Assembly: GCA_964471065.1 (NCBI GenBank)
Contig: CAYYEV010000002.1
Span: forward strand, 1 to 37,900
Length of the DNA: 37,900 nucleotides
DNA from: an uncultured Candidatus Saccharibacteria bacterium
Lineage (GTDB): Bacteria > Patescibacteriota > CPR2 > UBA1875 > CAIMLA01
Direction of reading: 5' to 3'
The position numbers and the translations under genes are program-made. Of the stretch, positions 4,451 to 21,732 are shown piece after piece. Each line of letters begins with the position of its first letter. The first letter of the stretch is position 1. The notes beneath the pieces were generated by a model. The model was not told the DNA's origin. It was given only the letters and a program-made list of their open reading frames with translations, and searched no databases.

Positions 4451-4455
4451 TATGT

Positions 4456-5160: not shown

Positions 5161-6346
5161 AAAATTTATTTTCAGAATGGTTTATAAGAATTTAAGCTCG
5201 CGGAAACTTAGAACGTTGCTAACTTTATCAGGGATTGTGATTGCTATATCAGCAATTGTCTTTTTATTGTCTTTCGCTCTTGGCATAGAAAAGTTAGTTA
5301 CTAACGAAGTAAGCAAAGGCAATGCGCTTCTGCTCTTAGATGTTGGCACCGGTAACTCTCGATTGATGGCGCTAGATGCTAAAACTATTACAGAAGTTAA
5401 GAATTTGGAAGGTGTGAGGTCTGTCTCCGGTCTGATCAGCGTCGGCGCTAAAGCTCAAAATAAAAATCGTACAGCTGAAGTGTCTTTTTACGGTACGGAC
5501 AAGCAGTATTTGTCTTGGTCAGGTTTAAACCTTAGAGCAGGACAAAATCTACCCGATAATGACGCAAAGCATGTGCTAATCAATACGGCTTATCTGCAAT
5601 TACTTCGTATGTCTTCTGAGGATGCGTTGGGGCAAAATATAAAACTTGGTCTTACGATTCCTAAGGAATTAAGCAAAATAGGTGTGGAGAAAGTAGTAGA
5701 GAACCAAGAATATATAGTGGTTGGAATAGTGCAAGATGATTCAACGCCAAAGGTCTACACAAATTATCAGAACTTAATGGATATTGACGCTTCAAACTAC
5801 AGCCAACTTAAAGTCGAGGTTGTTTCAAAAGATCGGGTAGAGGTGGTGCGAAAGCAAATTGAAAGCATCGGACTTAAAACGGACTATGTCGGTGATACTG
5901 TCTTGCAAATTGAACAGGTTTTTTTGATCTTCAAGATAATACTGGCAAGCTTTGGTTTTATCGCTTTAATCGTTGCTCTCCTCGGCATGTTTAACACTTT
6001 AACAATTTCATTATTAGAGAGAATCAAGGAAGTTGCTCTCATGAAGATGCTGGGAATGAAGAAGAAAGATATTAAAAGAATTTTTATAACCGAAGCTACG
6101 ATATTTGGTATCATCGGAGGTCTTCTCGGCCTTCTAATCGGTGTAGTTTTAAGTCAAATCGCTAATTACATCCTCAACTATTACGCCACAAGGTCGGGCG
6201 GAGAGTCAGTTACTGTTTTCTACTATTCATTACGATATGTTTTACTAATTTTTATAATTTCTTTTCTAGTCAGTTTCTTGACTGGATTTTATCCTGCACG
6301 AAAAGCAACGAAGATAGACCCACTGGAAGTATTGAGATACGAATAA
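5153..6346 (+). CDS. ABC transporter permease, FtsX/MacB-type
   Basis: It has an N-terminal TM helix, a large extracytoplasmic domain and a C-terminal FtsX-like 3-TM bundle (LLERIKEVALMKMLGMKKKDI...). It overlaps the ATPase gene by 8 nt. Confidence 0.85.
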   Translation: MDRKFIFRMVYKNLSSRKLRTLLTLSGIVIAISAIVFLLSFALGIEKLVTNEVSKGNALLLLDVGTGNSRLMALDAKTITEVKNLEGVRSVSGLISVGAKAQNKNRTAEVSFYGTDKQYLSWSGLNLRAGQNLPDNDAKHVLINTAYLQLLRMSSEDALGQNIKLGLTIPKELSKIGVEKVVENQEYIVVGIVQDDSTPKVYTNYQNLMDIDASNYSQLKVEVVSKDRVEVVRKQIESIGLKTDYVGDTVLQIEQVFLIFKIILASFGFIALIVALLGMFNTLTISLLERIKEVALMKMLGMKKKDIKRIFITEATIFGIIGGLLGLLIGVVLSQIANYILNYYATRSGGESVTVFYYSLRYVLLIFIISFLVSFLTGFYPARKATKIDPLEVLRYE

Positions 6347-6487
6347 TTTTCAAATAATTAGAATAGCCACCCGATTTGCCTAATTATCAACCTCGGGACG
6401 CTCAAATCTATGCCGTCGATAAAAATTTTTACCAACCCTTTCGCTTATATGCGGAGGATTCAGTTCATTCCCCCTAAAAACAACTTC

Positions 6488-6516
6488 TTGAAATAAAACC
6501 AGCGAAAAAATAGAAT
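6488..6516 (+). promoter_or_regulatory. Candidate sigma-70 promoter giving a near-leaderless transcript of the 6523 gene
   Basis: TTGAAA (6488-6493), a 17-nt spacer, then TAGAAT (6511-6516). The ATG at 6523 lies 7 nt after the -10 and has no Shine-Dalgarno. Confidence 0.4.
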
Positions 6517-6522
6517 GTTAAT

Positions 6523-7380
6523 ATGGACTTTGAATTTCTCTATGAATCACTTTTGACAACAGCCCGGATTGCTGTCATTATCATCCCGCTTCTTTTTATA
6601 TTTGATCTTTTGAACCATCGCTATGGTCACAGGATTGAATCAGTTCTAACTAAATCGCGTCTTTTTATGCCATTTCTTGGAGCAATTTTGGGCTTGCTTC
6701 CTGGTTGCAACGTTGCTGTTATTGCCGCTGTTTTTTATGCCAAAGGTGTCGTTACCCTTGGAACATTGCTGGCAGTAATGATTGCCACTTCCGATGAAGC
6801 TCTCTATGTCTTTATCCCGCTTGGTTTTAACTTCATACCGATCTTGGTCGCAAAATTAATTTTAGCGATAATAGTTGGCTATCTTGTAGATCTTTTTATC
6901 AAAGGGAAAATCATGTCTGGAATCAAAGCAGATACAGGAGAGGTTGATTTCTGCTGCTCCAAGCACCCTCATAGTGACACACCAAAAAAGATGTTTTTTC
7001 ATGCCCTAAAACATGGGTCCAGGATAATCTTGATAGTTTTTATCGTCTTGGCCGTCTTAAACTTTGTTCAGGATAGAGTTCAAATCGAAAACTTTGCCTC
7101 GGCTTTCGGCATTTTAGGGCCAATCCAACCTCTTGTTTTGGGCTTGATTGGTCTCATTCCCGGCTGTGGTACCTCTGTCGGTATCGCCACTTTGTACGCA
7201 AAAGGTTTTATTACTTTCGGAGCTGTTGTCGCCGGTCTATCAACGGCCAGTGGGGAAGCGGTTATTGTTCTTTTGGGCCAGGGGGTCGAAAAGAAGAGGA
7301 TAATAAGGATTATCACTATTCTGTTTGCCTTTAGTGTCCTTTATGGGATGACTTTATCTCTCCTTGGTATTTCTTACTAA
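6523..7380 (+). CDS. Polytopic membrane protein with an internal duplication (LPGCNVAV / IPGCGTSV): putative metal-ion transporter (ArsP_2-like 10-TM family)
   Basis: The two halves each contain a (L/I)PGC motif and an S(D/G)EA motif (ATSDEALYV / TASGEAVIV). A His/Cys-containing loop (CCSKHPHSD) joins the halves. The family assignment is from memory only. Confidence 0.55.
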   Translation: MDFEFLYESLLTTARIAVIIIPLLFIFDLLNHRYGHRIESVLTKSRLFMPFLGAILGLLPGCNVAVIAAVFYAKGVVTLGTLLAVMIATSDEALYVFIPLGFNFIPILVAKLILAIIVGYLVDLFIKGKIMSGIKADTGEVDFCCSKHPHSDTPKKMFFHALKHGSRIILIVFIVLAVLNFVQDRVQIENFASAFGILGPIQPLVLGLIGLIPGCGTSVGIATLYAKGFITFGAVVAGLSTASGEAVIVLLGQGVEKKRIIRIITILFAFSVLYGMTLSLLGISY

Positions 7381-7398
7381 ATTTGTTCTTTTTGTGTA

Positions 7399-7427
7399 TT
7401 GACACAATTTTTAAGTTGTGATATAAT
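7399..7427 (+). promoter_or_regulatory. Consensus sigma-70 promoter with extended -10
   Basis: TTGACA (7399-7404), a 17-nt spacer, then TGaTATAAT (TG at 7419-7420, TATAAT at 7422-7427). It lies about 30 nt upstream of the 7460 ATG. Confidence 0.75.
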
Positions 7428-7459
7428 TTTGTTGTAAAAATTGTTAAAGCAAAAGTAAA

Positions 7460-8563
7460 ATGTCTGATTCAGTTTCTATATTCGATAAGATTGTCGAGGC
7501 AGAAGAAGCGAAAAAGCTTCGCGGTTTTGACGTGGAAGAAGAACTGGCTTATCTCTTTTCTTGCCCAAAGCTTAAAAAAGAAAGGGATAAAGAAGTTTTG
7601 ATTGCCCGTCACGGCCTCGATGGACAGCACCCAAAGACTCTAGAAGAAATCGGCCGGGGACTGAAGATTACTCGGGAGCGGGTCAGACAGATCGAGAAGT
7701 CGGCCAACAAAAAGTTGGTTGATTATGCCAAAACCGAAAAAAGAGCCTTGAAAGCTTTTCATATTATAAAAGAGACCATCCACAAAGAGGGTGGCATTTC
7801 GACTAATTCCAACATTTATGATTTACTTTTGGGCGAAGGGAACAAAAGTAGCAAGCTCAAAAATCAACTAATTTATTTTGTTTCTTTAAATCCTTCATTT
7901 GTTGTTATAAACGAAACACAGACGACAAAAAGGGGAGTTTCGATTAAGTTAACTCTAAAGGAAATAGAAAAAATTATCTTTGCCGGCACCACCATTCTGC
8001 AATCAGAAAACAAGCCGGTTGAAGAAAAGGTTTTTTTGGCCAAAATAAAAAAGGAAATAACAAGCTCTCTAAGCGAAGAAGAAATTCGGGCTGCTATCTC
8101 TCTGGCTAAAAATATTATAAAGACAGAAGAAGGCCACTTGGGCTTGAGTCATTGGCGGGACATCAACCCTAGAAGCATCCGCGATAAAACTTACTATATT
8201 TTAAGAAGACACAAAAAACCGCTTCACTTCAATGATATCGCGGGGCGCATCGATAGCTTGGAGCAAAACAAGAAAAAAGTAACCAAACAGGCCGTTCACA
8301 ATGAACTTATCCGCGACGACCGGTTTGTTCTCATCGGTCGAGGCATTTATGCCCTCAAAGAGTGGGGTTACAACAAAGGAGTAGTTGAGGAAGTAATCGA
8401 AGAAGTTTTGATCTCGGCCGGTAAGCCAATGCACAAAGATGACATTATAAAAGAAGTGATGAAAAAACGGATTGTCAAAGAAACAACCGTTTTACTCAAT
8501 CTACAAAAAAATCGCTTTGAGCGAGTCGCCAGGGCAACTTATACGGTTAAGAAAAAACAGTGA
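7460..8563 (+). CDS. DNA-binding protein with a sigma-70 region-4 HTH and a C-terminal HARE-HTH / RNAP-delta-like winged helix. No sigma region 2 is visible.
   Basis: LEEIGRGLKITRERVRQIEKSANKKL is a classic region 4.2 HTH. The C-terminus (KPLHFNDIAGRI...FVLIGRGIYALKEWGY and GKPMHKDDIIKEV...RFERVARATYTV) resembles HARE-HTH modules. Confidence 0.65.
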   Translation: MSDSVSIFDKIVEAEEAKKLRGFDVEEELAYLFSCPKLKKERDKEVLIARHGLDGQHPKTLEEIGRGLKITRERVRQIEKSANKKLVDYAKTEKRALKAFHIIKETIHKEGGISTNSNIYDLLLGEGNKSSKLKNQLIYFVSLNPSFVVINETQTTKRGVSIKLTLKEIEKIIFAGTTILQSENKPVEEKVFLAKIKKEITSSLSEEEIRAAISLAKNIIKTEEGHLGLSHWRDINPRSIRDKTYYILRRHKKPLHFNDIAGRIDSLEQNKKKVTKQAVHNELIRDDRFVLIGRGIYALKEWGYNKGVVEEVIEEVLISAGKPMHKDDIIKEVMKKRIVKETTVLLNLQKNRFERVARATYTVKKKQ

Positions 8564-8569
8564 GGGTAA

Positions 8570-11500
8570 ATGGAACTAATCCAGGAAATAAGCTTAGCAA
8601 TACTTAGAGGTGGCTGGACTCTAATCGTTTGGACATGGTGGGTCGTCATTCCGGTTATTCTGTATTTTGCCTGGAAGAATCTAAAAAAAGCCCGTTATGT
8701 AGAACAAGCCAAACACATAGTTCTTTCTATCAAAATACCAAAGAACAACGACAAAGGGCCGGTTGCGGCCGAGATGATGTTTGCTTCACTCCACGGTATC
8801 CTTCAGCCCAAAAAGTCCAGAAACAAAGGTGACGTCGTTCAGGAACATTTAAGCTTTGAAATTGTTGCGACGACAAATGCGATTGAATTTTTCGCCTGGG
8901 TGCCCGAACATCTCCGTGATTTTGTCGAAGGACAGGTCTACGCTCAATATCCGACGGCCGAAATTACAGTTGTTGATGACTATACCAAGAACTTAGACAT
9001 AGACAACGATAAATTGGATGATTCCATCGCTGGAACCGAACTAAGTTTGGTCAAAAACTCAATTTATCCGATAAAAACCTTTCAAAACTTTGATGTCGAC
9101 CCTTTGGCCGGCATTACCGGCATGCTTTCAAAATTAGAAGGCGGGAGCGAAAGAGTCTGGATCCAGATCCTGGCCATGCCGATAGATGACGACTGGAGAG
9201 AAGGCGGCCTTGGCTACATCAAGAGCCGAAAAGATTCGCCCCAGAAACCAAAAGGGATTTTTTCTGATTTTCCGGGTTCTCTTTTTGCTGCTATTCCGGA
9301 AATAATCAGCTGGACTGTTTTTAATCTTTTTTATGGTCTGATTGGCGGTCCGGAGAAGAAAAAGGATGAGAAGAAAAAAGAAGAAAAGCCAAAATTGTCA
9401 CACCCCGAAGAGGTAGAGCTAACAGCAATTGAAGAAAAGGCTAATAAGCTTGGCTTTCGAGTTAAGGTTCGAGTCCTATATCTGGCCAAATCGACGGCCA
9501 AAGCCAAGGAAAGAATTCAGTCCGTTGTTGGTGCCTTCAAACAATTCAATACCACCAACCTGAATGGTTTTCAGGGTGACGCTATCTATACCGGTCAAGA
9601 ATTTTTGAATGCTTATAGGGCTAGGCTAATAACCGAGCCGTCATACATTTTAAATATCGAGGAGCTGGCCAGCCTCTACCATTTACCTCATGTTTCGGTT
9701 GAGACGCCCAATATCGTTTGGACCAGTTCAAAGAAGGGTGAGCCACCGGCTGGGCTACCTTATATAGAAGATCTAGCTCATGTCGACCCAGAAATAACAC
9801 CGCTAGCGATGACGACTCACCGTGGCGGCAATAAGCCTTTCGGCATCAAAAGAGACGATAGAAGACGTCATATGTACATCATCGGTAAAAGCGGGACGGG
9901 GAAATCAAGGTTACTTGAATCTTTGGCTATAAATGATATCCGAAGAGGCGAGGGTGTAGCTATCGTTGACCCACACGGTGAATTGATTGACCGGGTTTTG
10001 AAATATATCCCCAAAGAACGGGTAGATGATGTTGTTTATCTCAGCCCGGCCGACAGAGACTTTCCGATCGCTTTTAATCCCTTGGAGGCTACTCCGGAAT
10101 TCCGTGAAGAAGTGACTAACGGCTTTGTCTCGGTCCTGAAAAAGCAGTTCGGCTATTCTTGGGGGCCAAGACTGGAATATGTTTTGAAACACACCGTTTC
10201 AGCTTTAGTTGAAGTTGAAGGTTCAACGATGCTTGGCATTGTCCGAATGTTGACCGACAAAAATTACCGCAAAAAGATTGTCGGAGAAGTAACCGATCCG
10301 GTCGTTCAAATGTTTTGGCTCAAAGAATTTGCCTCATATAACGACAAAATGGCGACAGAAACAATTGCTCCGATCCTAAACAAAGTTGGTCAATTTACCG
10401 CTTCACCGATTATCAGAAACATTGTCGGTCAACCGCAAAGCAAGCTCGACTTCGCTAAAATTATGAATGAACAAAAAATTCTTTTGGTTGATCTCTCTAC
10501 CGGCAAGATAGGGGAAGCTAACTCGGAACTCATCGGTTCGATGCTAATTACTAAGATTCAGCTTGCCGCTATGAGCCGGGCTTACATCCCGGAAAATCAG
10601 CGAAAAGATTTTTATCTTTACGTTGATGAGTTTCAGAATTTTGCGACGGAATCTTTTGGCGTTATCTTATCAGAAGCCAGGAAATATCGGTTATCATTGA
10701 CGGTCGCCAATCAATACATCGCTCAGATGGATGAGAACGTCCGTGACGCCGTTTTTGGCAATGTCGGGACCCTGATATCATTTCGGGTTGGTGCGACCGA
10801 TGCGACCTATCTAGAAAAGGAATTTGCCCCGGTCTTTGTCCAAAACGACCTCATCAACCTGGACACTAGGAATGTTTACCTTAATATGCTTATTGATGGC
10901 GTCGCTAGTGTCCCTTTTAGCGCCATGACTTTGGACTCACCAAAGATCACCGAGGACTTGTCAGCTGTCATCACCGCCGTTTCCAGGGAAAAATACGGTA
11001 CGCCGAAAAAAGAAATCGAAGAAAATATCCGAAGATGGTACAACGTTGACTCGGTTATTGCCGGTGTCAACGCCAACGAGGCAGAAAATCCGATTAAGCA
11101 AAAAACCGAAAGAGAAACCGGAGAAAAGAAAAACGATTTAAAGAAGGCTATACAGGAAGCTTTGGATGATTCAAAAGTAATAATTAAAAATGAAAAACCA
11201 CCCGCCTCCGCTAAAGCGGAGTTTATCCGCCCCTGGCGGGGAACGGGCAAGCAAAACAAAAAAGTTGCCGAAGATAGGGTAGAAAAAGCTGAAAATCAGC
11301 CTACGGCTGACCAACCGAAGGTTGGAAAAACCGAGAAGAAAAGGGAAGAAAAAGCCGTTTCTTCTCCCGTCATTGCGAGAAGAAAACTCGACAGCCTGCC
11401 CGACCTCCGGCGGGAAGCAATCTCGGGCCAGTCAACAAATAATAGCCAGATTGGGAAAGACTATAAAAAAATTGATAAAAATATCCTTCGGGATATTATC

Positions 11501-11770
11501 AAAGAAGTGACCAAGCCAAGCGACCATCGTCGTTCAGAAAAGAATTTAGAATCTAGAGTCCAGAGTTCAGGAGGAGAACAGGGAAGCCACAAAACGAAAC
11601 ACAAGGAGACAAAAGGCGAGGATCATGATAAATTTACTCATCTTCACCAAAAAAAGGTGAGGGAAGTAACGGCCGAAGAATTCCACAAACTTCGAACGAT
11701 AGAGCCACACGAAAAAATTAAAATAAAAGAAACCAAAGAGATCAAACCGGGTGAGACAGTCAAGTTTTAA
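8570..11770 (+). CDS. Large membrane-anchored P-loop ATPase of the VirD4/TraG/TraD (type IV coupling protein, FtsK/HerA superfamily) type, with a Lys/Glu-rich tail of about 270 aa
   Basis: It has an N-terminal TM region (WTLIVWTWWVVIPVILYFAW). Walker A is IIGKSGTGKSRLL and the Walker B-like segment is FYLYVDEFQNFATESF...ARKYRLSLTVANQYIAQM (TraG-D_C-like). The C-terminus is low-complexity K/E-rich. Confidence 0.7.
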   Translation: MELIQEISLAILRGGWTLIVWTWWVVIPVILYFAWKNLKKARYVEQAKHIVLSIKIPKNNDKGPVAAEMMFASLHGILQPKKSRNKGDVVQEHLSFEIVATTNAIEFFAWVPEHLRDFVEGQVYAQYPTAEITVVDDYTKNLDIDNDKLDDSIAGTELSLVKNSIYPIKTFQNFDVDPLAGITGMLSKLEGGSERVWIQILAMPIDDDWREGGLGYIKSRKDSPQKPKGIFSDFPGSLFAAIPEIISWTVFNLFYGLIGGPEKKKDEKKKEEKPKLSHPEEVELTAIEEKANKLGFRVKVRVLYLAKSTAKAKERIQSVVGAFKQFNTTNLNGFQGDAIYTGQEFLNAYRARLITEPSYILNIEELASLYHLPHVSVETPNIVWTSSKKGEPPAGLPYIEDLAHVDPEITPLAMTTHRGGNKPFGIKRDDRRRHMYIIGKSGTGKSRLLESLAINDIRRGEGVAIVDPHGELIDRVLKYIPKERVDDVVYLSPADRDFPIAFNPLEATPEFREEVTNGFVSVLKKQFGYSWGPRLEYVLKHTVSALVEVEGSTMLGIVRMLTDKNYRKKIVGEVTDPVVQMFWLKEFASYNDKMATETIAPILNKVGQFTASPIIRNIVGQPQSKLDFAKIMNEQKILLVDLSTGKIGEANSELIGSMLITKIQLAAMSRAYIPENQRKDFYLYVDEFQNFATESFGVILSEARKYRLSLTVANQYIAQMDENVRDAVFGNVGTLISFRVGATDATYLEKEFAPVFVQNDLINLDTRNVYLNMLIDGVASVPFSAMTLDSPKITEDLSAVITAVSREKYGTPKKEIEENIRRWYNVDSVIAGVNANEAENPIKQKTERETGEKKNDLKKAIQEALDDSKVIIKNEKPPASAKAEFIRPWRGTGKQNKKVAEDRVEKAENQPTADQPKVGKTEKKREEKAVSSPVIARRKLDSLPDLRREAISGQSTNNSQIGKDYKKIDKNILRDIIKEVTKPSDHRRSEKNLESRVQSSGGEQGSHKTKHKETKGEDHDKFTHLHQKKVREVTAEEFHKLRTIEPHEKIKIKETKEIKPGETVKF

Positions 11771-11829
11771 TTATTTTAATAAATAAAACATAATTTCTTT
11801 TTGGCAATAGTCGCGGAGAGAGGGCGGGG

Positions 11830-11858
11830 GAAAATAATTTAAAATTATTTTCTTTTTT
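11830..11858 (+). terminator. Candidate intrinsic terminator after the ATPase gene
   Basis: gaaaataatt-taa-aattattttc forms a 10-bp (AT-rich) stem followed by ttttttatttatt. It is nested inside a possible outer GC stem (ggcgggg at 11824-11830 / ccccgcc at 11871-11877). Confidence 0.4.
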
Positions 11859-12210
11859 ATTTATTATCTACCCCGCCTCCCCTTCAAAAAACAAAAACTG
11901 ACAGCCGGTAAACTAGGTGGCCAAGTTATATTATTTATTTAATTAATTATTATATTTGGGCGAGCCTTGGACAGGAAAGAGAAGATCCGGATTTCTCCCT
12001 AATGTGATATCAGTTAGACCAAACGCCCCTGCCATCTCTTGATAAAGACTCTGTCGCACAATGTATCTTGCACGACTTTTAAGAATTTTAGACAAGGCCG
12101 ATAGATAGGTCATTTTTTATAGAACGAAATAATAAGAAATACTTATTTATAAGTATTATTTGGCTTTTTGTTTGTCACTTTTCCTGTCATTCCATGTCCA
12201 TCCTTTTGTC

Positions 12211-12263
12211 ATTCCCTCGAAAGCGGGAATCCATCTAAATAGATTCCGGATCAAGTCCGGAAT
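12211..12263. repeat. Two REP-like GC hairpin modules
   Basis: attccc-tcgaaagc-gggaat (12211-12230) and attccgga-tcaag-tccggaat (12243-12263). gtcattcc occurs 3 times nearby. Translation gives WIPAFEGMT and VIPDLIRN-type strings, which are typical of spurious ORFs over such repeats. Confidence 0.6.
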
Positions 12264-12531
12264 GACATTCATAAATTTTATAAATTGATTTGTAATTTGT
12301 AATTGGTCATTAGTAATTATTGTTGTAGGGTATCGAACCGGATCTTTCTGCCAGGGACCAAGTCCGTAATTATTTTTCAATTATTTAATTCGTCATCCGG
12401 CTCTTCTCTCTCCCCTATTTTTCATTTTTGTAATTTTTAATTTATTAATTGCAATTTCTTAGTCTCTAGCATTTCTCTTCACAAAATACTTGACAATATC
12501 ATAAAGCGTTAATGTTCAGAGAGGACGCAAA

Positions 12532-12831
12532 ATGGACGACGACCACAGGAAATGGGAAGACCAGCTTGCCCGGTTCTTTGAGGACCACCTAGACGGCAAG
12601 GAGCCTCGGCTTTTGTCGCCGCCCTATGTCGAGCTGGGCAAGCATGTGTCTGAGTGCCAACACTGCCAGGCAGCCTACGCCACGGTGTCACACTCGTGGA
12701 TTACCAACCCCAATTGGTCGCCCGAGGAGGAGGTCAGAGAGGCCATCGAGGCCGAATTCCGGCACTTTGGCATCACGCTAGACCGAAGTCCTGAACAGGT
12801 CGATCTTGAAAAGGAGTCTGAGGTGTCCTAG
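12532..12831 (+). CDS. Small acidic hypothetical protein with an HxxxCxxC (zf-HC2 anti-sigma-like) motif. Its composition is foreign to the host.
   Basis: RBS gagagga lies 7 nt upstream of the ATG. There is a strong G/C third-position bias (gac gac gac cac ... ctg ggc aag) unlike neighbouring genes. The motif reads LGKHVSECQHCQAAY. Confidence 0.65.
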   Translation: MDDDHRKWEDQLARFFEDHLDGKEPRLLSPPYVELGKHVSECQHCQAAYATVSHSWITNPNWSPEEEVREAIEAEFRHFGITLDRSPEQVDLEKESEVS

Positions 12832-12886
12832 TAGAAGCGCTTCACCAACAACATACATATGCGCCCGCCGCGTTCGTCAAGGATGT

Positions 12887-12950
12887 GAGCCCTCACAACG
12901 GGAAGGCAACTCAGCTATATGCTGAGCTAGCCAAACCGGGGTGAGGGCTC
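12887..12950 (+). other. Nested stem-loop downstream of the 12532 ORF
   Basis: The outer 10-bp stem is gagccctcac (12887-12896) / gtgagggctc (12941-12950). The inner hairpin is ctcagc-tatat-gctgag (12910-12926). No U-tract follows. Confidence 0.4.
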
Positions 12951-13009
12951 GATCCATTCTTAGCCATTATTTTCAACTTTGTTATTTTGTTGTTTTGTTA
13001 TTTAGTTAT

Positions 13010-13261
13010 TTAGTCTTTTACTATATACTTTTTGCCTCTGAGGCCTTCGACATAGATTTTGTGCCAGGCAACCGGCCCGCAGACAAAGCCAATCAAGGCG
13101 CCGATAACGACTGCCAGCCCGTAAAGGACGACCAGAAGATTTAGCTCGTCATAGATCCAATACGAGACAAGCTCTAGGATACCGGCAAGCATAACGGCGA
13201 TTAATACTCCGGTAATAACCCAGAGGACTAGATAGGTGATTTTTTTGGTTGTTCCATTCAT
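13010..13261 (-). CDS. Small two-TM membrane protein (hypothetical)
   Basis: 83 aa with two clear hydrophobic helices (ITYLVLWVITGVLIAVMLAGIL and LLVVLYGLAVVIGALIGFVCG). No convincing Shine-Dalgarno. Confidence 0.5.
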   Translation of the reverse strand: MNGTTKKITYLVLWVITGVLIAVMLAGILELVSYWIYDELNLLVVLYGLAVVIGALIGFVCGPVAWHKIYVEGLRGKKYIVKD

Positions 13262-13330
13262 TTGTTTTTAACCCCAGCGCTGCAAGCCGGAGCCCTTTCT
13301 TCTTATAATAGTTTAATTATACACTTTTCT

Positions 13331-13387
13331 AATTTTTAATTTGAAGTTTGTAATCAAATCCAATGATAAATTTTAAATTAATCAACA
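13331..13387. repeat. AT-rich intergenic element, copy A (copy B at 33980-34029)
   Basis: aatttttaattt(gaagtt)tgtaatcaaatccaatgataaattttaaattaatcaaca aligns with aatttttaatttgtaatcaaattcaataataaattattaattaatcaaca. There are a few mismatches and one indel of about 6 nt. Confidence 0.7.
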
Positions 13388-13493
13388 ATTTCAACGTTTT
13401 CCCCGACGTTACAGTCGGGATTTTCGACAACATTTCAACAGCTCTCTTGCCCAACGTTTTTAACAATTTCAACGATTCTTTTTCTTTTTTAGC

Positions 13494-13522
13494 TTGACCG
13501 TCCTCTCCCCTTGTTATATAGT
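13494..13522 (+). promoter_or_regulatory. Candidate sigma-70 promoter for the 13647 ORF
   Basis: TTGACC (13494-13499), a 17-nt spacer, then TATAGT (13517-13522). Confidence 0.45.
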
Positions 13523-13646
13523 TGTCTCTATTCACAAAACTAAAGTTGTGCGTACCACCCGTGTCCGGCGCTTACAAAAGTCAAAGCTAAGGGGACTCTT
13601 TCCGGTATCAGTCGTCACTCATAGGGATAGGCTTGGGGGGCCAAAA

Positions 13647-13919
13647 GTGATTGGAACTATCGCGATCAGCCTAGTGGTGTCAATCCTGCTCGCTTACTGG
13701 CTGGCTCTGAACGAAAGTCGGATTCGACGAGTCTTTCGTCTGTTCGATTACCACACATCCCTGAGATCAGCCATCAAGGCTGCCAGGGCGAGCCACCCCT
13801 ACCCCACAGAAGTCCTCTGCCAGTTCTACTGTGCAGAGGACTGGGAACGAGAGCGCCAGGAGCTATTGGACGATGACCCGGATGACCCGGGGCTCCGTCG
13901 TTTCATCGCCACTCATTAA
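13647..13919 (+). CDS. Small hypothetical protein with an N-terminal TM helix; GC3-rich, foreign composition
   Basis: GTG at 13647 is preceded by gggggg (Shine-Dalgarno-like). The product begins VIGTIAISLVVSILLAYWLAL..., and codons end mostly in G/C. The alternative start GTG 13548, or the listed TTG 13494 (which coincides with the predicted -35), cannot be excluded. Confidence 0.55.
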   Translation: MIGTIAISLVVSILLAYWLALNESRIRRVFRLFDYHTSLRSAIKAARASHPYPTEVLCQFYCAEDWERERQELLDDDPDDPGLRRFIATH

Positions 13920-13950
13920 AGACACCAAAGTACGTGTCGGGCACAAAAAA

Positions 13951-13979
13951 AGAGCGTCGCCTACCGGAAGCGACGCTCT
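13951..13979. terminator. Bidirectional intrinsic terminator between convergent genes
   Basis: agagcgtcgc-ctaccggaa-gcgacgctct forms a 10-bp GC-rich stem. An A7 run flanks it on the left and ttt on the right. Confidence 0.75.
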
Positions 13980-13982
13980 TTC

Positions 13983-14801
13983 CTATTTATAAAAAATTTT
14001 ATTATCAATTCTAAGATCGATATATTCTAAACTTCTCTTGCCCGATCTCCTTGCTTCTTCGACAACTCGAGCCAGATTTATAAGTTCATTTTTAGCCGTT
14101 CTGGTTGTATCGAAATAAGCATACCAACTGGAATTTGAGTAAGCTTTTAGTTCACTCGTTGTATCGACAACTTCCAGCTTGACCATCTTAGCACCAGTAA
14201 TCGTTTCAAAGTCTTTCTTCAAATCCATAACAAAAGTAGCAAATGATGGCGGAACCGGTTTCTTGCCTATCTCGGTCGGAATGTTCTTGGTATCGATAAC
14301 GACCGGGGTGTCTCGAAATTTATCTTCAAAGTTGCCCCAGATCATACCGGATTCATCCACCAGATATCTGTGGTCCAGAACCTGCCAAACAAAAGCCGGT
14401 TCTCTCTCGGCAACGACAAGAGACAAGGCGTCGGGATATTTTTTACTTATCCGGACAGATTTAATCCCCGGGATAGCCAAAATCTTTTTTTCGAGACCTC
14501 CTCTATTAAAAGTAATTAGGTTTTGATTCAAAATAAAACCTGTTTTATAAGCCTCAACCGGTTTTTCGACATTGGCTCGATCTTGATATTTGAGATCGTT
14601 TAGCTCTACCCTTTTTATCCTAAAGACCGGCGAGAAAAGAATTAAATAAGTAATCCCAATGAGCGTAATAATCAAAAAGACGGCCAGAAAGCCTTTCTTG
14701 AAATCCCTCCTGACTATATCCTGTTGGGTTCTGGAATAGATAGAGGGCTGTCTCCGGCCTCTATCTAGTCTCCCCTGCCCTAATTTACTCCTCCTTATCA
14801 T
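13983..14801 (-). CDS. ftsQ: Cell division protein FtsQ/DivIB (POTRA domain)
   Basis: It has a basic N-terminus, a single TM helix (FLAVFLIITLIGITYLILF) and a POTRA-like segment (FRIKRVELNDLKY...). It is the last gene of the dcw cluster. Confidence 0.8.
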   Translation of the reverse strand: MIRRSKLGQGRLDRGRRQPSIYSRTQQDIVRRDFKKGFLAVFLIITLIGITYLILFSPVFRIKRVELNDLKYQDRANVEKPVEAYKTGFILNQNLITFNRGGLEKKILAIPGIKSVRISKKYPDALSLVVAEREPAFVWQVLDHRYLVDESGMIWGNFEDKFRDTPVVIDTKNIPTEIGKKPVPPSFATFVMDLKKDFETITGAKMVKLEVVDTTSELKAYSNSSWYAYFDTTRTAKNELINLARVVEEARRSGKRSLEYIDLRIDNKIFYK

Positions 14802-15957
14802 CTTCTTCTCTGGCCAAAAATTCTTTTGCTACTTTGATAATCTCGCCTGAAACCAACTTAGCAGCCTCTGTTTTGGCATACTCGTGAATGTGCTCGGCCA
14901 TTTTCTTCATATCCTCCGGCTGTTCGACCAAAAGGTCGATTTGGCGGGCCAATTTCTTTCCGGTCAAATGTTCCTGAAGCATAAGAAGGGCCGCTCCTGA
15001 TTGAGATAAAATCTTGGCGTTTGTTAACTGATGATCATTGGCCGAAGTCGAAAGCGGAATTAAAATAGTTGGTTTTGATAGCGATGCCAGCTCGGCGATA
15101 ACATTGTTCCCGGCTCGAGAAATGACCAGGTCCGAAACGGCAAAAGCATCTTTGAGATCACTTGATAAAAAATTATAGAGATGGTAGTGCTTGGCCAGTT
15201 TCGGAGTCAGTTTTTGGGCTCGAAAACTAAGCCAATCATAATCCCTCTCTCCCGAAACATGAATGAGTTGATATTTTTCTAGCAAAGCGTCCAAACAATC
15301 CGAAATCAATTGATTTATAATATAGGCGCCTTGACTGCCACCGATCACCATGACCACCGGCCGGTCTTTGTCCAGACCAAACTCTCTGATTCCCCTCGCC
15401 TTGTCCCCTTGATAAATGTCATCACGGATTGGATTACCGGTATAAACTAAGTTTTCCAACCCCGTCTCCTTGTAAGCTTCCAGAGGATATGCGACACAAA
15501 CTTTAGCCGCTTTTTTGGCTAGCAATCGATTCGAAAGACCAATGACGCTGTCCGATTCATGGATAACCAAAGGATAGCCCAGACTAATGGCTGCTTTACC
15601 AACCGGTAAGCTGACATAGCCACCTTTAGTAAAGACAACGTCAGGGTCAAACTCTGAGATAATTTTTTTGGCTTCGCCTATCCCCTTTTGATAACGAAAA
15701 AAATCCCGGCTGTTTTTGAAAAGAGTTGTCGGGTCAACTACATTTAGAAGCTGGTTTCTGTGATACCTTCTAAATTTGCCACAAGGAATTGATTTGAAGT
15801 CGATGCCCGTCTGAGGAATAATTTTGTTCTCCAGACCTTCCTCTGAACCGATATAAAGGATTTCCGTCGAAGCATCATAAGTTTTTATTTCATTGATTAC
15901 TGCCAAAACCGGGGATATATGCCCGCCAGTTCCGCCGCCAGAGACGATTATGCGCAA
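14785..15957 (-). CDS. murG: Undecaprenyldiphospho-muramoylpentapeptide beta-N-acetylglucosaminyltransferase MurG
   Basis: The N-terminus is MRIIVSGGGTGGHISP (the G-loop of MurG). The start is TTG with an aaaggag RBS. Confidence 0.9.
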   Translation of the reverse strand: MRIIVSGGGTGGHISPVLAVINEIKTYDASTEILYIGSEEGLENKIIPQTGIDFKSIPCGKFRRYHRNQLLNVVDPTTLFKNSRDFFRYQKGIGEAKKIISEFDPDVVFTKGGYVSLPVGKAAISLGYPLVIHESDSVIGLSNRLLAKKAAKVCVAYPLEAYKETGLENLVYTGNPIRDDIYQGDKARGIREFGLDKDRPVVMVIGGSQGAYIINQLISDCLDALLEKYQLIHVSGERDYDWLSFRAQKLTPKLAKHYHLYNFLSSDLKDAFAVSDLVISRAGNNVIAELASLSKPTILIPLSTSANDHQLTNAKILSQSGAALLMLQEHLTGKKLARQIDLLVEQPEDMKKMAEHIHEYAKTEAAKLVSGEIIKVAKEFLAREEDDKEE

Positions 15958-17098
15958 CTTGCTCTCCTTTCTGAGTGTGCTTACTTATATTCAATAGTAT
16001 ACCAGAAGCAAACATCAACATAATAATTGATGATCCGCCGTAACTTATAAAAGGCAACGGCACACCGGTCAAAGGCATCAAGGACAAGATAGCCATGATA
16101 TTGATCAAAGACTGGCCAACGACCCAGGTCGTGATACCGACAGCCATTAATCTGGCAAAAGTGTCCGGCGCTTCCGATGCTACCTTGAGACCACGAGTGG
16201 CATAGCCGACGATAAGGACAATCACCAGAAAAGCGCCCAAAATGCCCAATTCTTCTGTAATAACAGCAAAGATTGAATCTGTTGCCGCTTCGGGCAAATA
16301 ATTGAACTTTTGTCTGGATTTGCCAAAGCCAAGACCCAAAATACCTCCCGAGCCAATGGCTAGTAGTGCCTGATTGACATGATATCCTTGTCCGCTGCTA
16401 TCTGCAGTCGGATTCAAAAAAACGGTAAAACGGGCCATTCGATATGGAGCACTTTTTATTAGATACACGATCATCCCTACAGCTAGAGCGAGCATGCCTA
16501 AGATGTGGACTTTTCTTGCTCCGGCGACCAGATAGATAGCGCCGGCAATTACCGCCAGGACAACGGTCGTGCCCATATCCGGTTCTGCAATAACCAAACC
16601 GCCGACCAGGGCCAAGATCAAAAGAAAAGGTAATGTCCCACTAAAAAGCTTCTTTACTTCTGTCCCCTTGCTTTCAAACCAAGCTGCCAGGTAAATGATA
16701 AGGGCTAGTTTCGTTAGTTCGGATGGCTGAAATTGCATAAAGCCAAGGTTAACCCAGCGGTGAGCTCCGTTTCTCTCAACTCCGATACCGGGCAAAAAGA
16801 CAGCAATTAGGGCGAGAATGCTTAGAATCATAAGAATCGGGGCAAATTTTCTCCAGAAGCGGTAGTCAAGTTTTAGCCCAAGAAAAAATAAAATAAGACC
16901 GACGCCGACACTTCTAAGCTGAGTGAAAAAATAATAGTTAGGGTTTCCGGCTTCTTGCTGACTAAGGACGACTGAGGCCGAAGAAATCATAATCAGACCA
17001 AAAATCAAAAGAAGCGCCGTAATGACAGTCAGGACCGGATCGGGGCTACCCAACCCACTCTGGGCTCGTTCTTTGACTGCGCTTCTAGATAAAGCCAT
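15890..17098 (-). CDS. ftsW: SEDS peptidoglycan glycosyltransferase FtsW/RodA family
   Basis: A 10-TM protein with QPSELTKLALIIYLA and PEAATDSIFAV motifs. Its 3' end overlaps murG by 68 nt. Confidence 0.88.
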   Translation of the reverse strand: MALSRSAVKERAQSGLGSPDPVLTVITALLLIFGLIMISSASVVLSQQEAGNPNYYFFTQLRSVGVGLILFFLGLKLDYRFWRKFAPILMILSILALIAVFLPGIGVERNGAHRWVNLGFMQFQPSELTKLALIIYLAAWFESKGTEVKKLFSGTLPFLLILALVGGLVIAEPDMGTTVVLAVIAGAIYLVAGARKVHILGMLALAVGMIVYLIKSAPYRMARFTVFLNPTADSSGQGYHVNQALLAIGSGGILGLGFGKSRQKFNYLPEAATDSIFAVITEELGILGAFLVIVLIVGYATRGLKVASEAPDTFARLMAVGITTWVVGQSLINIMAILSLMPLTGVPLPFISYGGSSIIMLMFASGILLNISKHTQKGEQVAHNRLWRRNWRAYIPGFGSNQ

Positions 17099-18150
17099 TA
17101 GAGGCTTCCCCGCCCAACCAAAGCAACAGCGACGCCGAGGACAGCCGTAACTGCCCCGATAACCCAGAACCTCATTGTTACTTTAGTCTCCGGCCAGCCT
17201 TTGGCTTCCAGGTGATGATGAATCGGTGCTGACAAGAAAACCTTCTTGCCGTGTCTTAATTTCTTTGACGTTAGCTGAATAATGACAGAAAGAGTTTCGG
17301 CGACAAAGACAAAACCAATTATTGGCAAAACCAAAACCGTATTTGTCAACATTGCCACGACGCCAAGGGTCGCCCCCAGGGAAACTGCTCCCGTATCGCC
17401 CATAAAAAACCTGGCCGGAAAAATATTAAACCAAGTGTAGGCTAGGGTTGCCCCGGCAACAGTACCGCAAAAGATAGCCAAACCGTAATTGCCTTGGAAA
17501 AAAGAAATGATAGCATAGGCAGCAAAAGAAGTTGACAAAAGTCCACCCGAAAGCCCGTCCAAACCATCAGTGATATTGACAGCGTTAGCCGTGGCAATCA
17601 CGATAAAGATAAAAAGCGGAACGTAGAGCCAACTGATTGTCAAATCCCCCCAAGCCGGAATATGAATGATATTCCAACCAAGCTTGGCATAGAACCACCA
17701 GGCACCGATGGCGGCAAAGATGATAAGCCAAGTCATCTTGAATTTCGATCTCATTCCGGCCAAACCGCCGGTTGAACGGATGTTAATATAATCATCGACT
17801 AAGCCCAAAAGACCGATTGTAATCATCGTAAACAGTGGCAGCCAAGTCTGAGCTCGGTCAAGGTTAAAAAGCAAGGTCAAGATAGCCACTGAACCCCAGA
17901 TGATAACGCCGGCCATTGTCGGGATATGCCTTTTGTGCTTGGCCGCATGAATTTTATGAAAAACCGGTATTGCTTTGCCGCCCATATCCTCAGTCTTTAC
18001 CTGTTTCCACCATTTGTATTTATAGGCAAAGTGAGTAAAAAGCGGCGTCAAGATGATCGCCAAACTAAAAGAAGCGAATGAAAAGAAGAAGAGCTTGATC
18101 AAAAACGGAGTAACTATTTGTTCATTGATAACGATTGATGTAAGTTCCAT
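17098..18150 (-). CDS. mraY: Phospho-N-acetylmuramoyl-pentapeptide transferase MraY
   Basis: Motifs are NAVNITDGLDGL and MGDTGAVSLG. I prefer ATG 18150 (MELTSIV...), which has an aggaga RBS. The listed GTG 18171 would sit on that RBS. Its stop overlaps the ftsW start (TAATG). Confidence 0.9.
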   Translation of the reverse strand: MELTSIVINEQIVTPFLIKLFFFSFASFSLAIILTPLFTHFAYKYKWWKQVKTEDMGGKAIPVFHKIHAAKHKRHIPTMAGVIIWGSVAILTLLFNLDRAQTWLPLFTMITIGLLGLVDDYINIRSTGGLAGMRSKFKMTWLIIFAAIGAWWFYAKLGWNIIHIPAWGDLTISWLYVPLFIFIVIATANAVNITDGLDGLSGGLLSTSFAAYAIISFFQGNYGLAIFCGTVAGATLAYTWFNIFPARFFMGDTGAVSLGATLGVVAMLTNTVLVLPIIGFVFVAETLSVIIQLTSKKLRHGKKVFLSAPIHHHLEAKGWPETKVTMRFWVIGAVTAVLGVAVALVGRGSL

Positions 18151-18167
18151 TTGTTTTCTCCTCTGCC

Positions 18168-18190
18168 CCACATACCGTACTGGTATGTGG
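18168..18190 (-). other. Hairpin in the murF-mraY intergenic spacer
   Basis: ccacatacc-gtact-ggtatgtgg is a perfect 9-bp stem immediately upstream of the mraY RBS. No U-tract follows. Confidence 0.3.
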
Positions 18191-18243
18191 CCTGCCGTTA
18201 GACTTTTATTTTATCGAAACATCGGGGACGTTTACTGTCGAGG

Positions 18244-19524
18244 CTATTTAAAGCATTTCTCTTTTTTCTTTTGCCAAAAGCCAGACTGCCGAACCAGCTC
18301 TTCCCCTGCTTTTGCTGGTGTAGCCATAATTATTTTAACCGTTTCTTCAACAAAGACTTTATTCTGTGACCCTTTGACTAGGATGATATCACCTTTCTTG
18401 ATAGTTTTCTTTAGATATTCTCCGGCAGCGTAAGGATTATCAAACGACTGGATGCTTTCCTTTTTCATCTTTGCCTCGGCCTTTGGGACAATATGAGCTT
18501 TGGCCAGTTCTCCGACCGTAATTAGAATATCACAGGCCTCTCCTGCTTTCTCCCCTACTTCTTCGTGCCCTTTTCTTTCATAATCACCAAGTTCATTCAT
18601 ATTGCCCAAAACAGCAATTTTCCGGCCAGGCATTCTTGAAAGAACGTCCAGGGCAGCTATGGTTGAAGCAGGATTAGCATTATAGCTATCATCAATGATA
18701 GTCGAATCATTTGTCCCCTTAACTAGATTCATCCGGCCAGGCACCGGCTTAAATTCTTCTAACTTCTTTAGAAGTTTCTTTGGCTCTTTGCCTAGATAGA
18801 GAGCAGCCGCAAGAGCAGAAAAAAGAGATGGCAAAAGCTGAGGAGCAATAATTTGTAAATTCAAAGAATGTTTCTCTTCTTTCCAAATGAAGTCAACCGA
18901 GGTGCCGTCCGGAGAAATTTGTTCTTTGCCCCAAGAAAGATCAGAGCCTTTCCCTTGGCCAACAAAAAGGATTTGGCTTTTTGTTTTTTTGGCCATTTTT
19001 CTGACCAAGATGTCATCATTATTCAGAACCGCTAAATCGTTTTCCGTCAAGCTTGATAAAATTTCGCTTTTCTCCAAAGCTACCGCCTCAACGTCTTTGA
19101 AGTTTTCCATATGAACAGGCAAAACTGTCGTCACAATAGCGATGTGGGGCTTGATAAAAGAGGTCAGGTGAGAGATATCTCCCGGCCTGTCTGCGCCCAG
19201 CTCTAGAACAATTCTTTTGTAGTCGGCTTTTTTGAAGATAGTTAGAAACATCTTTAACAAAATCTTAAGCCAAGAGCCAAGGCTACCAATCCTTTCCGGC
19301 GTCCGAAGTTTAAAAACAGCTAAAGGGACCCCTATCTCCGTATTGTAGGCTTCTGTCGGGGTATATATATCAGAGTCAGTCAAAAGTTGAGCCAGAGCTA
19401 GTTTGGCGGTTGTCTTGCCAGCCGATCCAGTAATAGCAATTACCTCAATCCGGTTTTTGGCTAGATAAATCCGGGTCAGGGCCGCCAGAAGAAAAGTGAT
19501 TATTTTTTTAAAAATATTTTTCAT
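18244..19524 (-). CDS. murF: Mur ligase, most likely UDP-MurNAc-tripeptide--D-Ala-D-Ala ligase MurF
   Basis: The ATP-binding motif is IAITGSAGKTT. The central and C-terminal Mur ligase domains are recognisable (IIDDSYNANP). It lies between ftsI and mraY. Confidence 0.75.
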   Translation of the reverse strand: MKNIFKKIITFLLAALTRIYLAKNRIEVIAITGSAGKTTAKLALAQLLTDSDIYTPTEAYNTEIGVPLAVFKLRTPERIGSLGSWLKILLKMFLTIFKKADYKRIVLELGADRPGDISHLTSFIKPHIAIVTTVLPVHMENFKDVEAVALEKSEILSSLTENDLAVLNNDDILVRKMAKKTKSQILFVGQGKGSDLSWGKEQISPDGTSVDFIWKEEKHSLNLQIIAPQLLPSLFSALAAALYLGKEPKKLLKKLEEFKPVPGRMNLVKGTNDSTIIDDSYNANPASTIAALDVLSRMPGRKIAVLGNMNELGDYERKGHEEVGEKAGEACDILITVGELAKAHIVPKAEAKMKKESIQSFDNPYAAGEYLKKTIKKGDIILVKGSQNKVFVEETVKIIMATPAKAGEELVRQSGFWQKKKEKCFK

Positions 19525-21216
19525 TATCTTATTTTCTCTGTCGGTGGAATTTGGTAATACTTCAACAAAAAGTCTAACATCTTTCCGACAATCGGAGCAG
19601 CCGAACTTTCGGCCCAGGGGATTCCTTTGGGTTCATCAATCTTGGCCAAAACAACAAATTTCGGATTGTCAGCCGGAGCAAAACCGACAAAAGTACCAAT
19701 ATTTCTACCCGAGCTATAGCCGCCTCTCGGGTCCGGTACTTGGGCCGTCCCTGTCTTGCCGGCGACTTTATAGCCAGCAACCTTAGCCTGATAACCGTGA
19801 CCGTTGTCAACAACTGAAACCATCATTTTTGTCATATCATTGGCGAGACAGCCTGTCTTATTTCTTTTGGCTCGGTTTTTTTGGTTTCTTCCTTGTTGTT
19901 GTCGACCGTTTTTTGGACTATATAGGGCTTCATCATCTTGCCATCGTTAGCAATGGCAGCAAAGCTAGTCAGCATTTGAAGCGGGGTAACCGAGATACTT
20001 TGGCCAAAGCTCATCGTGGCATAACCATGGTCGTTTAGCTCTTTGGGACTATAGACCTTACCCGATGTTTCGCCTGGAAGCTCTATCCCCGTCAGCTCGC
20101 CAAAGCCGAAATTATTCACATATCGATAAAAACTATCTTTTCCGAGTTCTCTGGAAACCCAGGTTGAACCCGTATTCAGAGATTCTTCCAAAACATAAGT
20201 CATGGTGCAAATGCCATGAGCTTTCTTGTCAGAGTTTCTGATTGTATAACCATCTAGGGTTATCTGACCGGTATCTTCGAATTTAGTCTCGGGCGTTATC
20301 TTGCTTGCATCCAAACCAGCAGCCAAAGTTATAACTTTAAAGACTGATCCCGGTTCGTAAGTATCATTGACGGCCCCATTTTTAAAGATATTATAGCTAC
20401 TCAGCTTGATTTCGGCATATTTGTTGGGATCAAAGTTCGGGTTCGTTGCCAAAGCCAAGATAGCGCCCGTTTCAGGCTCCATCACAATAACTTGGCCGCC
20501 AGCTGCTCCAAATTTTTTGACTGCGTCATTTAACTGCTGCTCGGCTTGTCCCTGGATGTATCTATCAATTGTTAGGTATAGATCGGTGCCATCAACCGGC
20601 GGTTTAGAAACATTATCGCCAAAGGCAATTTCCACGCCGGCATGGTCTGCTTCGGCCTTCAAAAGTCCGGGGGAGCCACTCAGGTCTTCATTGTAATACT
20701 CTTCTAGGCCATAGTTGCCCTTAAACTCAGCATTGACGAAGCCTAAAAGATTTGAGGCTAATTTTCCTTCCGGATAGTAGCGCCAGTTTTCAGCCGTTAG
20801 GCCGATTCCTGTCATTTTTTTATCACGAATTTTATCGCCTTGCTCCTTTAAAAGCTTGTGTTTTATCGGAACATAAGTGTCAGAAGTGCCATACCCAAAA
20901 CTACTGATAAAAATTGGGCTGCCTCTTCTTTATTTTCTAACTTCTTTGGCTCGACAAAAACCAAGTCTAGGGCTTGGTTCGTTGCCAAAAGATAAGGCGA
21001 ACTAGAAATTGTATCCGCAGCATAGATCTTGCCTCGTTTGGCCGGAATAACATCTTTGATCCAATGCTGAGAAGCAGCTAGCTTAAAAAAATAGTCATGT
21101 TTTACTATTGTTAGTTCAACGACACGATAAGAAATTATTGCGACGAGAGCGACAAAAATAAAAAAAACCCAAAAAACCCTCTTTCGCTGAACAACTGCGT
21201 TGTGATAACTTTTCAT
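19524..21216 (-). pseudogene. ftsI: Class B penicillin-binding protein (FtsI/PBP2-like transpeptidase) broken into three ORFs (21216-20863, 20815-19832, 19835-19524)
   Basis: The N-terminal TM and dimerisation part is in ORF 1. SVFK (SxxK) and SLN (SxN) are in ORF 2. KTGT is in ORF 3. Each junction needs a -1 frame change. The ORF2/ORF3 junction is an ATGA stop/start overlap. Confidence 0.8.
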
Positions 21217-21263
21217 GAAGCCTAATCCTAATGAACCAATGCGTCTATTTTACCTGAGAAAGC

Positions 21264-21602: not shown

Positions 21603-21732
21603 CTTTCCCTCCCCTTTCGTCCCTCCGGCGCTTATTTTGAGCACTAGAGAGTTTTTTGTTTTTATCTCGGCTTTGTTCACCCCCGATACCTGTTGCCGGG
21701 GTGCCCTCCTTTAAGGCTTCTTGTCTTCTTTT

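Follow-up and report, generated by a model that had tools for sequence, protein, structure and literature searches.

Two GC-rich, probably exchangeable single-gene units in the hypervariable ftsQ/VirD4 gap of a Patescibacteria-type genome

The division and cell wall (dcw) gene cluster considered here lies on the minus strand of a 37,900-nucleotide (nt) window, which is positions 1 to 37,900 of contig C2 in a Patescibacteria-type metagenome-assembled genome (MAG; 597 kb, 43 contigs, 42.8% GC). The cluster comprises mraZ, rsmH, ftsI (as two open reading frames, ORFs), a Mur ligase gene, mraY, ftsW, murG, and ftsQ. Beyond ftsQ is a gene for a VirD4/TrwB-like coupling ATPase of 1,066 amino acids (aa). 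Because the ATPase gene ends at 11,770 (+) and ftsQ runs from 14801 to 13983 (-), the region between them is a 2.2-kb gap between convergent genes. The gap contains two GC-rich segments, the first with the gene P1 and the second with the gene P2, and a native gene, P3, stands between them on the other strand (Table 1). We think it probable that the two segments are independent, lineage-specific, swappable GC-rich single-gene accessory units in a hypervariable gap. They are neither a paired module nor displacers of ftsA and ftsZ.

Table 1. Features of the ftsQ/VirD4 gap and its borders (positions in the window)
Feature	Positions	Strand	Description
VirD4/TrwB-like coupling ATPase gene	8570..11770	+	Pfam TrwB_AAD_bind, DUF87, TraG-D_C; left border of the gap
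Native conserved 63-nt block	12052..12114		79% identical to L026 9202-9140; left limit of the P1 slot
P1 expression signals	12490..12525	+	TTGACA 12490-12495, TAATGT 14 nt away; Shine-Dalgarno GAGAGGA 12519-12525
P1	12532..12831	+	99 aa, acidic (isoelectric point 4.7), cytoplasmic, all-helical; GC-rich cargo gene
84-nt nested GC-rich hairpin	12879..12962		Between converging P1 and P3; conserved scaffold of the slot
P3	13010..13261	-	83-aa two-helix membrane protein gene; native; separates the GC-rich units
AT-rich dispersed repeat	13326..13450		Native-type DNA in the divergent P3/P2 promoter region
Sigma-70-like promoter of unit 2	13494..13522	+	TTGACC-17-TATAGT; 10/12 consensus matches
P2	13647..13919	+	Orphan 90-aa ORF, GTG start, GGGGGG 6 nt before
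Bidirectional terminator hairpin	13949..13981		12-bp stem; inverted repeat I17; common to ftsQ and P2
ftsQ	13983..14801	-	POTRA_1; last dcw gene, right border of the gap; orthologues in 21/21 relatives

The segments (12,500 to 12,960 and 13,540 to 13,980) have 55 to 60% GC, compared with 42.8% genome-wide. GC in 200-nt windows peaks at 0.57 to 0.605 (12,500 to 12,900) and at 0.545 to 0.59 (13,600 to 13,900), and it is 0.30 to 0.40 in the flanks. Both segments are in the top ~1% of the genome, because the 99th percentile of the 300-nt windows is 0.55 (mean, 0.428; standard deviation, 0.048). The GC fractions at the first, second, and third codon positions (GC1, GC2, and GC3) are 0.64, 0.37, and 0.73 for P1 and 0.615, 0.43, and 0.64 for P2. 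GC3 of the genome's 321 long ORFs has a mean of 0.434, a standard deviation of 0.059, and a maximum of 0.64. Synonymous codon usage was scored relative to native 95-codon pieces of the genome. P1 scored at z=-3.4, and 0.2% of the native pieces scored below it; for P2, at z=-4.1, no native piece did. By the same score, ftsQ and P3 are ordinary for the genome. The dinucleotide relative abundance of the units (76th to 83rd percentile) is less extreme than the codon signal, and the anomaly is therefore mainly a shift in GC and in the third codon position. The GC windows, GC3, and codon usage thus confirm the two segments with G/C third-position bias described in the initial annotation. Comparable GC-rich patches occur elsewhere in the genome, for example on contig C3. 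Positions 4000 to 21700 of that contig (locus L032), where many small and medium GC3-rich ORFs (0.56 to 0.72) are interleaved with native genes, form the genome's largest concentration of atypical composition.

The convergence of ftsQ and the VirD4-like gene has been retained at nine loci spanning the family and order. The gap that they enclose is hypervariable, from 268 bp without any gene to 3,719 bp, and its content is lineage specific. The locus L026 represents the closest relative that we found (FtsQ, 67% identical). There, the P2 position is occupied by a different ORF of 111 aa, which is GC-elevated and convergent with ftsQ, and the P1 position by a different GC-elevated ORF of 89 aa with the promoter TTGACT-17-TAATGT. 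A second relative (G004, locus L027) has another pair of GC-elevated ORFs (77 and 55 aa) directly after ftsQ. The slot ORFs of these two relatives have no relation to P1 or P2. P2, the 111-aa ORF of L026, and the 77- and 55-aa ORFs of G004 are also mutually dissimilar, and among the slot cargos only L026_89 and L027_74 are related. The gaps of G007 and G006 contain no GC-rich ORF. In L026 the same gap has, in addition, a DUF6504 gene and a Y-family DNA polymerase gene (6139 to 7617), both absent from the window.

What the window and L026 have in common at the P1 position is the 84-nt hairpin. It folds with a minimum free energy of -55.7 kcal/mol (z=-5.4) and is kept in L026 (8439 to 8357) at 76% identity, where it follows the different cargo ORF. 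Its outer stem has two compensatory pair changes in L026 (TCAC/GTGA to CCGC/GCGG). The comparison indicates that at the P1 slot the scaffold has been kept and the gene exchanged. P3 is a resident gene of the locus, with syntenic homologues (58 to 64% identity) downstream of ftsQ in G009, G004/L027, and L026. The single islet of the initial annotation is instead two separate single-gene units that flank the native, syntenic P3.

It had also been expected that ftsA-ftsZ would follow ftsQ at this point. We found that the ftsA-ftsZ pair of this genome is on contig C10 (5623 to 8132), behind adk and map. In 20/20 relatives, ftsA is either on a different contig from ftsQ or 140 to 190 kb distant. 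The units did not displace ftsA or ftsZ, because ftsQ converges on the VirD4-like gene throughout the order. In this clade, ftsQ is normally the last gene of the dcw cluster.

P1 has only two homologues among 5.8 billion proteins searched with a word index and 1.84 billion representatives searched with a full HMMER profile: P0002 on a 1.2-kb JGI contig (L002) and P0004 on a 1.3-kb Logan contig (L030). Over 72 codons aligned between P1 and P0002, the ratio of nonsynonymous to synonymous substitution rates (dN/dS) is ~0.10, and 39 third-position differences stand against 11 at the second position. This pattern argues that P1 is a real gene under purifying selection. The conserved core spans residues 5 to 65 and has nine invariant residues (H5, W8, H19, H38, C42, H44, C45, W56, and W62). 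The HxxxCxxC motif, H38-x3-C42-x2-C45, is invariant in 3/3 members of the family. An AlphaFold2 (AF2) model of P1 has five helices and a predicted local distance difference test score (pLDDT) of 76.6. P1 has no family match in Pfam (E≤0.1), NCBIfam, PHROGs, PADLOC, or a PDB sequence profile search, its homologues have none in Pfam at E≤1, and Foldseek found nothing at E<1 in PDB or BFVD, nor at E<3 in PDB. None of 40 relatives has P1, and it is likewise absent from 32/32 species of the class, the GTDB representatives, IMG/VR, and the phage and plasmid collections. The GTDB representatives and IMG/VR were covered by pattern scans, and 50,697 phage and 72,556 plasmid records were searched with P1 and P2 by tblastn. 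A phage or plasmid origin was rejected, because neither protein was matched in these searches.

The composition of P1 and its homologues bears on whether GC-richness is a trace of foreign origin at all. The units could be resident genes whose high GC is actively maintained, for example for the sake of stable structured transcripts. The three P1-family genes retain GC3 values of 0.69 to 0.79 at saturated synonymous sites (proportion of synonymous differences, 0.61 to 0.90), all in AT-richer surroundings. The unit transcripts fold better than their shuffles (z=-3.8 and -3.2, versus -1.95 for the ftsQ control), the dinucleotide signatures are not strongly foreign, and the promoters and flanks look native. 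However, the terminal hairpins account for much of this excess in folding. The genes are also absent from every relative, and other genes fill the slots in the closest one. Moreover, maintained GC is compatible with mobility, so that resident genes of this kind compete only with a recent import and not with units that are accessory and swappable. We consider resident genes an unlikely explanation.

P2 has no homologue in any collection searched. It is the only long ORF in the six frames of segment 2, and its GC1>GC2<GC3 pattern fits coding DNA. An N-terminal transmembrane (TM) helix (residues 1 to 23; Kyte-Doolittle hydropathy, 2.2) is followed by a basic stretch, an acidic domain, and a DDDPDDPG tail. 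The ORF length, the frame-specific GC, and the TM-like N terminus suggest that P2 is a coding sequence. It would most likely be a small protein tethered to the membrane, with an acidic tail in the cytoplasm, the charged domain as a whole being probably cytoplasmic. The AF2 model (pLDDT, 65.5) is confident for the TM helix only and is too poor for a fold search. Transcription from the sigma-70-like promoter would start near 13530 and give a leader of ~117 nt, which therefore excludes an upstream TTG start for P2. This leader has no exceptional fold (z=+1.7). The terminator hairpin at the end of the unit (-25.7 kcal/mol; z=-4.4) has a T7 run on the minus strand, the ftsQ side.

Segment 2 might instead be a GC-rich non-coding RNA, with P2 not a protein gene. 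The lack of a P2 homologue, the poor AF2 model, and a moderate excess of transcript folding are in keeping with this, and in DNA with 55% GC, an open frame this long can arise by chance at a frequency that is not negligible. We regard the proposal as quite unlikely. It has to contend with the coding-type GC pattern, the Shine-Dalgarno-like GGGGGG, the TM helix joined to a charged domain, and the sole long ORF, and the segment has no Rfam match and no fold signal in its leader. No tRNA or Rfam family was found in the region with ARAGORN or with Rfam at gathering and E-value thresholds. A structured-RNA reading of the two segments was rejected on these blank searches and because P1 is clearly coding. 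The earlier preference for coding DNA over structured RNA thus stands for P1 on its dN/dS, and for P2 it is the reading that its ORF features favor.

The relatives of P1 point to a wider setting. Their contigs (L002 and L030) and positions 2140 to 3240 of contig C13 in the genome itself (L031, same positions) have a common backbone around unrelated GC-rich cargo. The backbone begins with a tRNA 3'-end junction (...CACCA, then AAGCATAAGCAT...; junction sequence, AAGCATAAGCA). It continues with the promoter TTGAC-17-TAGAAT or TATAAT and the leader box TTGACAAGCAGA, after which comes the cargo. Downstream of the cargo are a terminator hairpin, a sequence that contains all the core nucleotides of a type III hammerhead (CUGAnGAG, stem II, CGAAA, stem III, H17), and a small conserved antisense ORF. 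The P1-family cargo of L002 and L030 has a GC3 of 0.69 to 0.71 in AT-richer contigs. The C13 copy is a third GC-rich islet of the genome, flanked by the genes for an ABC ATPase and a histidine kinase. It has the promoter, the TTGACAAGCAGA box, two small ORFs with a high GC3 (63 and 78 aa), and the terminator hairpin, and it ends with a complete type III hammerhead core followed by the small conserved antisense ORF.

With the Rfam model RF00008, whose gathering score is 48.5, the C13 hammerhead reaches only 31.5 bits (E=0.009). Stem II has a U-A/C-G covariation among the copies, and a genome-wide descriptor search had its sole match at C13:2917-2971. A pattern scan found the same hammerhead 3' of GC-rich cargo in seven other Patescibacteria/Saccharibacteria MAGs (L041 to L047), where the cargo has 59 to 72% GC and a GC3 of up to 0.88. 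L042 (oriented 1218 to 2700) contains a complete tRNA-Ala gene, and the backbone starts at the final base of that gene. No integrase gene is apparent on the short cassette contigs, for which no systematic search was made. Hammerheads that flank variable genes have been described in prophage regions, where the neighbors are not constant (Perreault et al. 2011, PMC3088659). The P1 relatives are like those genes (RF00008 type III) in combining a single-gene cargo, a hairpin, and a complete core. However, the cassettes found here abut a tRNA 3' end and not a recognizable prophage, and the window units differ in having no hammerhead or backbone. We found no paper in the literature that ties hammerhead-flanked genes to Saccharibacteria.

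The initial annotation had proposed a higher-GC donor. The simplest form of that idea is a recent direct capture, independent of any cassette system, from a high-GC source, for instance an actinobacterium serving as host or a phage of that host. Actinobacteria commonly have HxxxCxxC zinc motifs, the codon usage of the units is like that of organisms with 58 to 60% GC, and the genome has other GC-rich patches, including the one on C3. However, across all the searched collections, no homologue was found beyond three Patescibacteria-type contigs with AT-rich flanks, and the P1 family has diverged to saturation in such contexts. A direct capture is in our judgment improbable. What holds of the donor proposal is the atypical composition and the lineage-specific distribution of units that we judge to be acquired; a donor homologue was not found in the searched collections.

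P1 and P2 had also been proposed to act together as a two-component module, either anti-sigma-like or toxin/antitoxin-like. Both genes are small, have an atypical composition and the same orientation, lie within 1.5 kb, and are preceded by a 13-nt repeat. However, they are 815 nt apart, they have separate promoters, and P3 intervenes on the opposite strand. Moreover, L002 and L030 each carry a P1 homologue as solitary cargo and contain no P2-like ORF. Searches of Pfam, NCBIfam, and PADLOC gave no toxin-antitoxin, defense, or anti-sigma match, and there is no adjacent sigma factor. A typical toxin-antitoxin pair consists of adjacent, co-transcribed genes of known families, whereas P1 and P2 are widely spaced and have no family match. 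We therefore find a two-component module very improbable.

The anti-sigma proposal for P1 comes down to its HxxxCxxC motif, because P1 has no family or fold match. With the zinc-binding anti-sigma (ZAS) proteins (zf-HC2, PF13490; RsrA, ChrR), P1 shares an H-x3-C-x2-C arrangement in a small helical protein, and its upstream invariant His could supply the fourth ligand. P1 differs from them in matching no zf-HC2 model, in having no anti-sigma fold or adjacent sigma gene, and in having solitary homologues. A six-frame search of the whole genome with PF13490 gave nothing at E≤0.1, and the control genomes matched. There is no anti-sigma chain among the Foldseek PDB matches of P1, which is a weak negative because the AF2 model is of moderate quality. 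The neighbors of P1 are the hairpin and P3 on one side and an AT-rich spacer on the other, with no sigma gene. Tentatively, the best candidate role for P1 is that of a small regulator or adaptor that binds zinc and proteins and makes use of the H/C cluster.

The gap contains no integrase, transposase, or tRNA, as the initial annotation had stated, and the only tyrosine recombinase of the genome (PF00589) is at C12:4201-4740. The other features reported earlier, an oppositely oriented small membrane-protein gene, AT-rich repeats, and a bidirectional terminator, are all present. An assembly or binning artifact, that is, chimeric insertions from another organism, is hardly credible even though the MAG is in 43 contigs and has scaffold gaps. 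It would need two separate insertions of 0.4 kb, both of which would have to fall exactly between a native-type promoter and a hairpin. Moreover, one of the flanking hairpins is conserved in an independent assembly (L026), analogous GC-rich ORFs occupy the same slots in two independently assembled relatives, and there are no N runs inside the window or within 24 kb.

We return to two independent, swappable accessory units and suggest how they may be built. Unit 1 would consist of a weak promoter, a Shine-Dalgarno sequence, the 99-aa P1 gene, and the 84-nt nested hairpin. Unit 2 would consist of the sigma-70-like promoter, the leader of ~117 nt, the orphan P2 gene, and the ftsQ terminator. Each unit would be transcribed towards a native gene, with P3 between the two. 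The units may have been drawn from a pool of GC-rich small cargo that circulates among Patescibacteria, because both P1 relatives are cassette cargo and a cassette is present on C13 of the same genome. Like that cargo, the window units have GC-rich coding sequence, their own promoter, a strong 3' hairpin, and AT-richer surroundings. In this scenario, cargo would be exchanged by recombination within a conserved scaffold, without a locally encoded integrase.

The units resemble horizontally acquired islets and ORFans in their atypical composition, patchy distribution, location in a hypervariable gap, and differing content in relatives. They differ from these in that each is a gene complete in itself, with a promoter and a 3' hairpin of its own, and in that they have no integrase, transposase, tRNA, direct repeats, or identifiable donor. 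A further difference is that the P1 family keeps its GC-rich codon bias across deep divergence, with no amelioration. With integron cassettes the units share a swappable ORF of atypical composition beside a conserved imperfect-palindrome hairpin. However, the hairpin has no R''/R' cores (RYYYAAC/GTTRRRY), there is no integron integrase, and the units have their own promoters and occupy single slots instead of arrays. An attC reading of the 84-nt hairpin was rejected, because the core sites and the integrase are absent.

Several observations weigh against swappable accessory units from a shared cargo pool. The promoter of P1 is non-canonical and was not listed by the consensus scan. All three P1-family genes keep a high GC3 despite saturation, which repeated transfer and selection for GC-rich transcripts would explain equally well. 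No hammerhead was found between 11,700 and 14,100 at E≤10 with Rfam, and the window has no similarity to L002, L030, or C13 outside the P1 ORF, the backbone being absent. The homology of P1 is what links the window to the cassette pool, because its units have neither backbone nor hammerhead. Similarly, the case for P2 as a coding gene is made by its ORF features, because it has no homologue. No direct-repeat target duplications were found around the units, only AT-rich low-complexity repeats. The sole candidate is the 13-nt sequence TCT(C/A)TTCACAAAA just 5' of both units, which may be a chance match. Finally, no donor or transfer mechanism was found for the units.

A more general proposal goes well beyond two units in one gap. 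Patescibacteria might have fixed slots, marked by conserved hairpins and native-type promoters, that swap GC-rich cargo without a local integrase from a pool in common with the hammerhead-tailed cassettes. The ftsQ/VirD4 gap would be one such slot, and the 84-nt hairpin would be a recombination or processing signal. We offer this as speculation with a small chance of being right. If it were true, ultra-small symbiotic bacteria would possess a gene-cassette system that has not been described before. Because the genomes of ultra-small Patescibacteria are minimal, how they gain and retain accessory genes is poorly understood. The locus offers a natural comparison, with the same hairpin and flanks and different GC-rich cargo in two relatives. 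If the pattern is general, it would point to a dedicated mechanism by which these symbionts swap small genes, and it would suggest that the hammerhead ribozymes of bacteria have a concrete role.

Upstream of P1, the conserved 63-nt block contains the imperfect palindrome GTCGTGCAAGATAyATTGTGCGAC. The block may be non-coding, because stop codons break the overlapping ORF (11943..12113) in L026. A compound hairpin at 12207-12267 (GTCATTCCC...GGGAAT / ATTCCGGATCAAGTCCGGAATGAC; z=-2.4) has a T-arm-like look, and a related motif, GGAyCAAGTCCG, recurs at 12355-12370. A tRNA remnant or att site upstream of P1 was rejected, because the sequence is unlike the 33 tRNAs of the genome and does not match the Rfam tRNA model. 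Between P3 and P2, a predicted minus-strand promoter (13345..13316) would serve P3. The AT-rich dispersed repeat located there occurs in >15 partial copies that are spread over 12 contigs. It contains (c)aacaatttcaac(g) repeats and is typically promoter-proximal intergenic DNA, with copies at 33979-34033 in the window and on contigs C3, C4, C6, C7, C9, C13, C19, C20, C41, and C42.

To the left of the gap, a sigma-region-4/HARE helix-turn-helix (HTH) gene and the VirD4-like ATPase gene (7460-11770; loci L018 to L026) resemble a remnant of a mobile element. The VirD4-like gene does not belong to a recent element, because it is syntenically conserved across the order, and a reading as an integrative and conjugative element or prophage was rejected for the same reason. 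To the right, ftsI (penicillin-binding protein transpeptidase; 19524-20815, minus strand) is split into two ORFs (20815..19832 and 19835..19524) that overlap by 4 nt; the split may be genuine, or it may reflect a frameshift or a sequencing error. The window opens with a diversity-generating retroelement (positions 1-2303) that has a bAvd-like gene, a reverse transcriptase gene, and an Lcl_C-type target.

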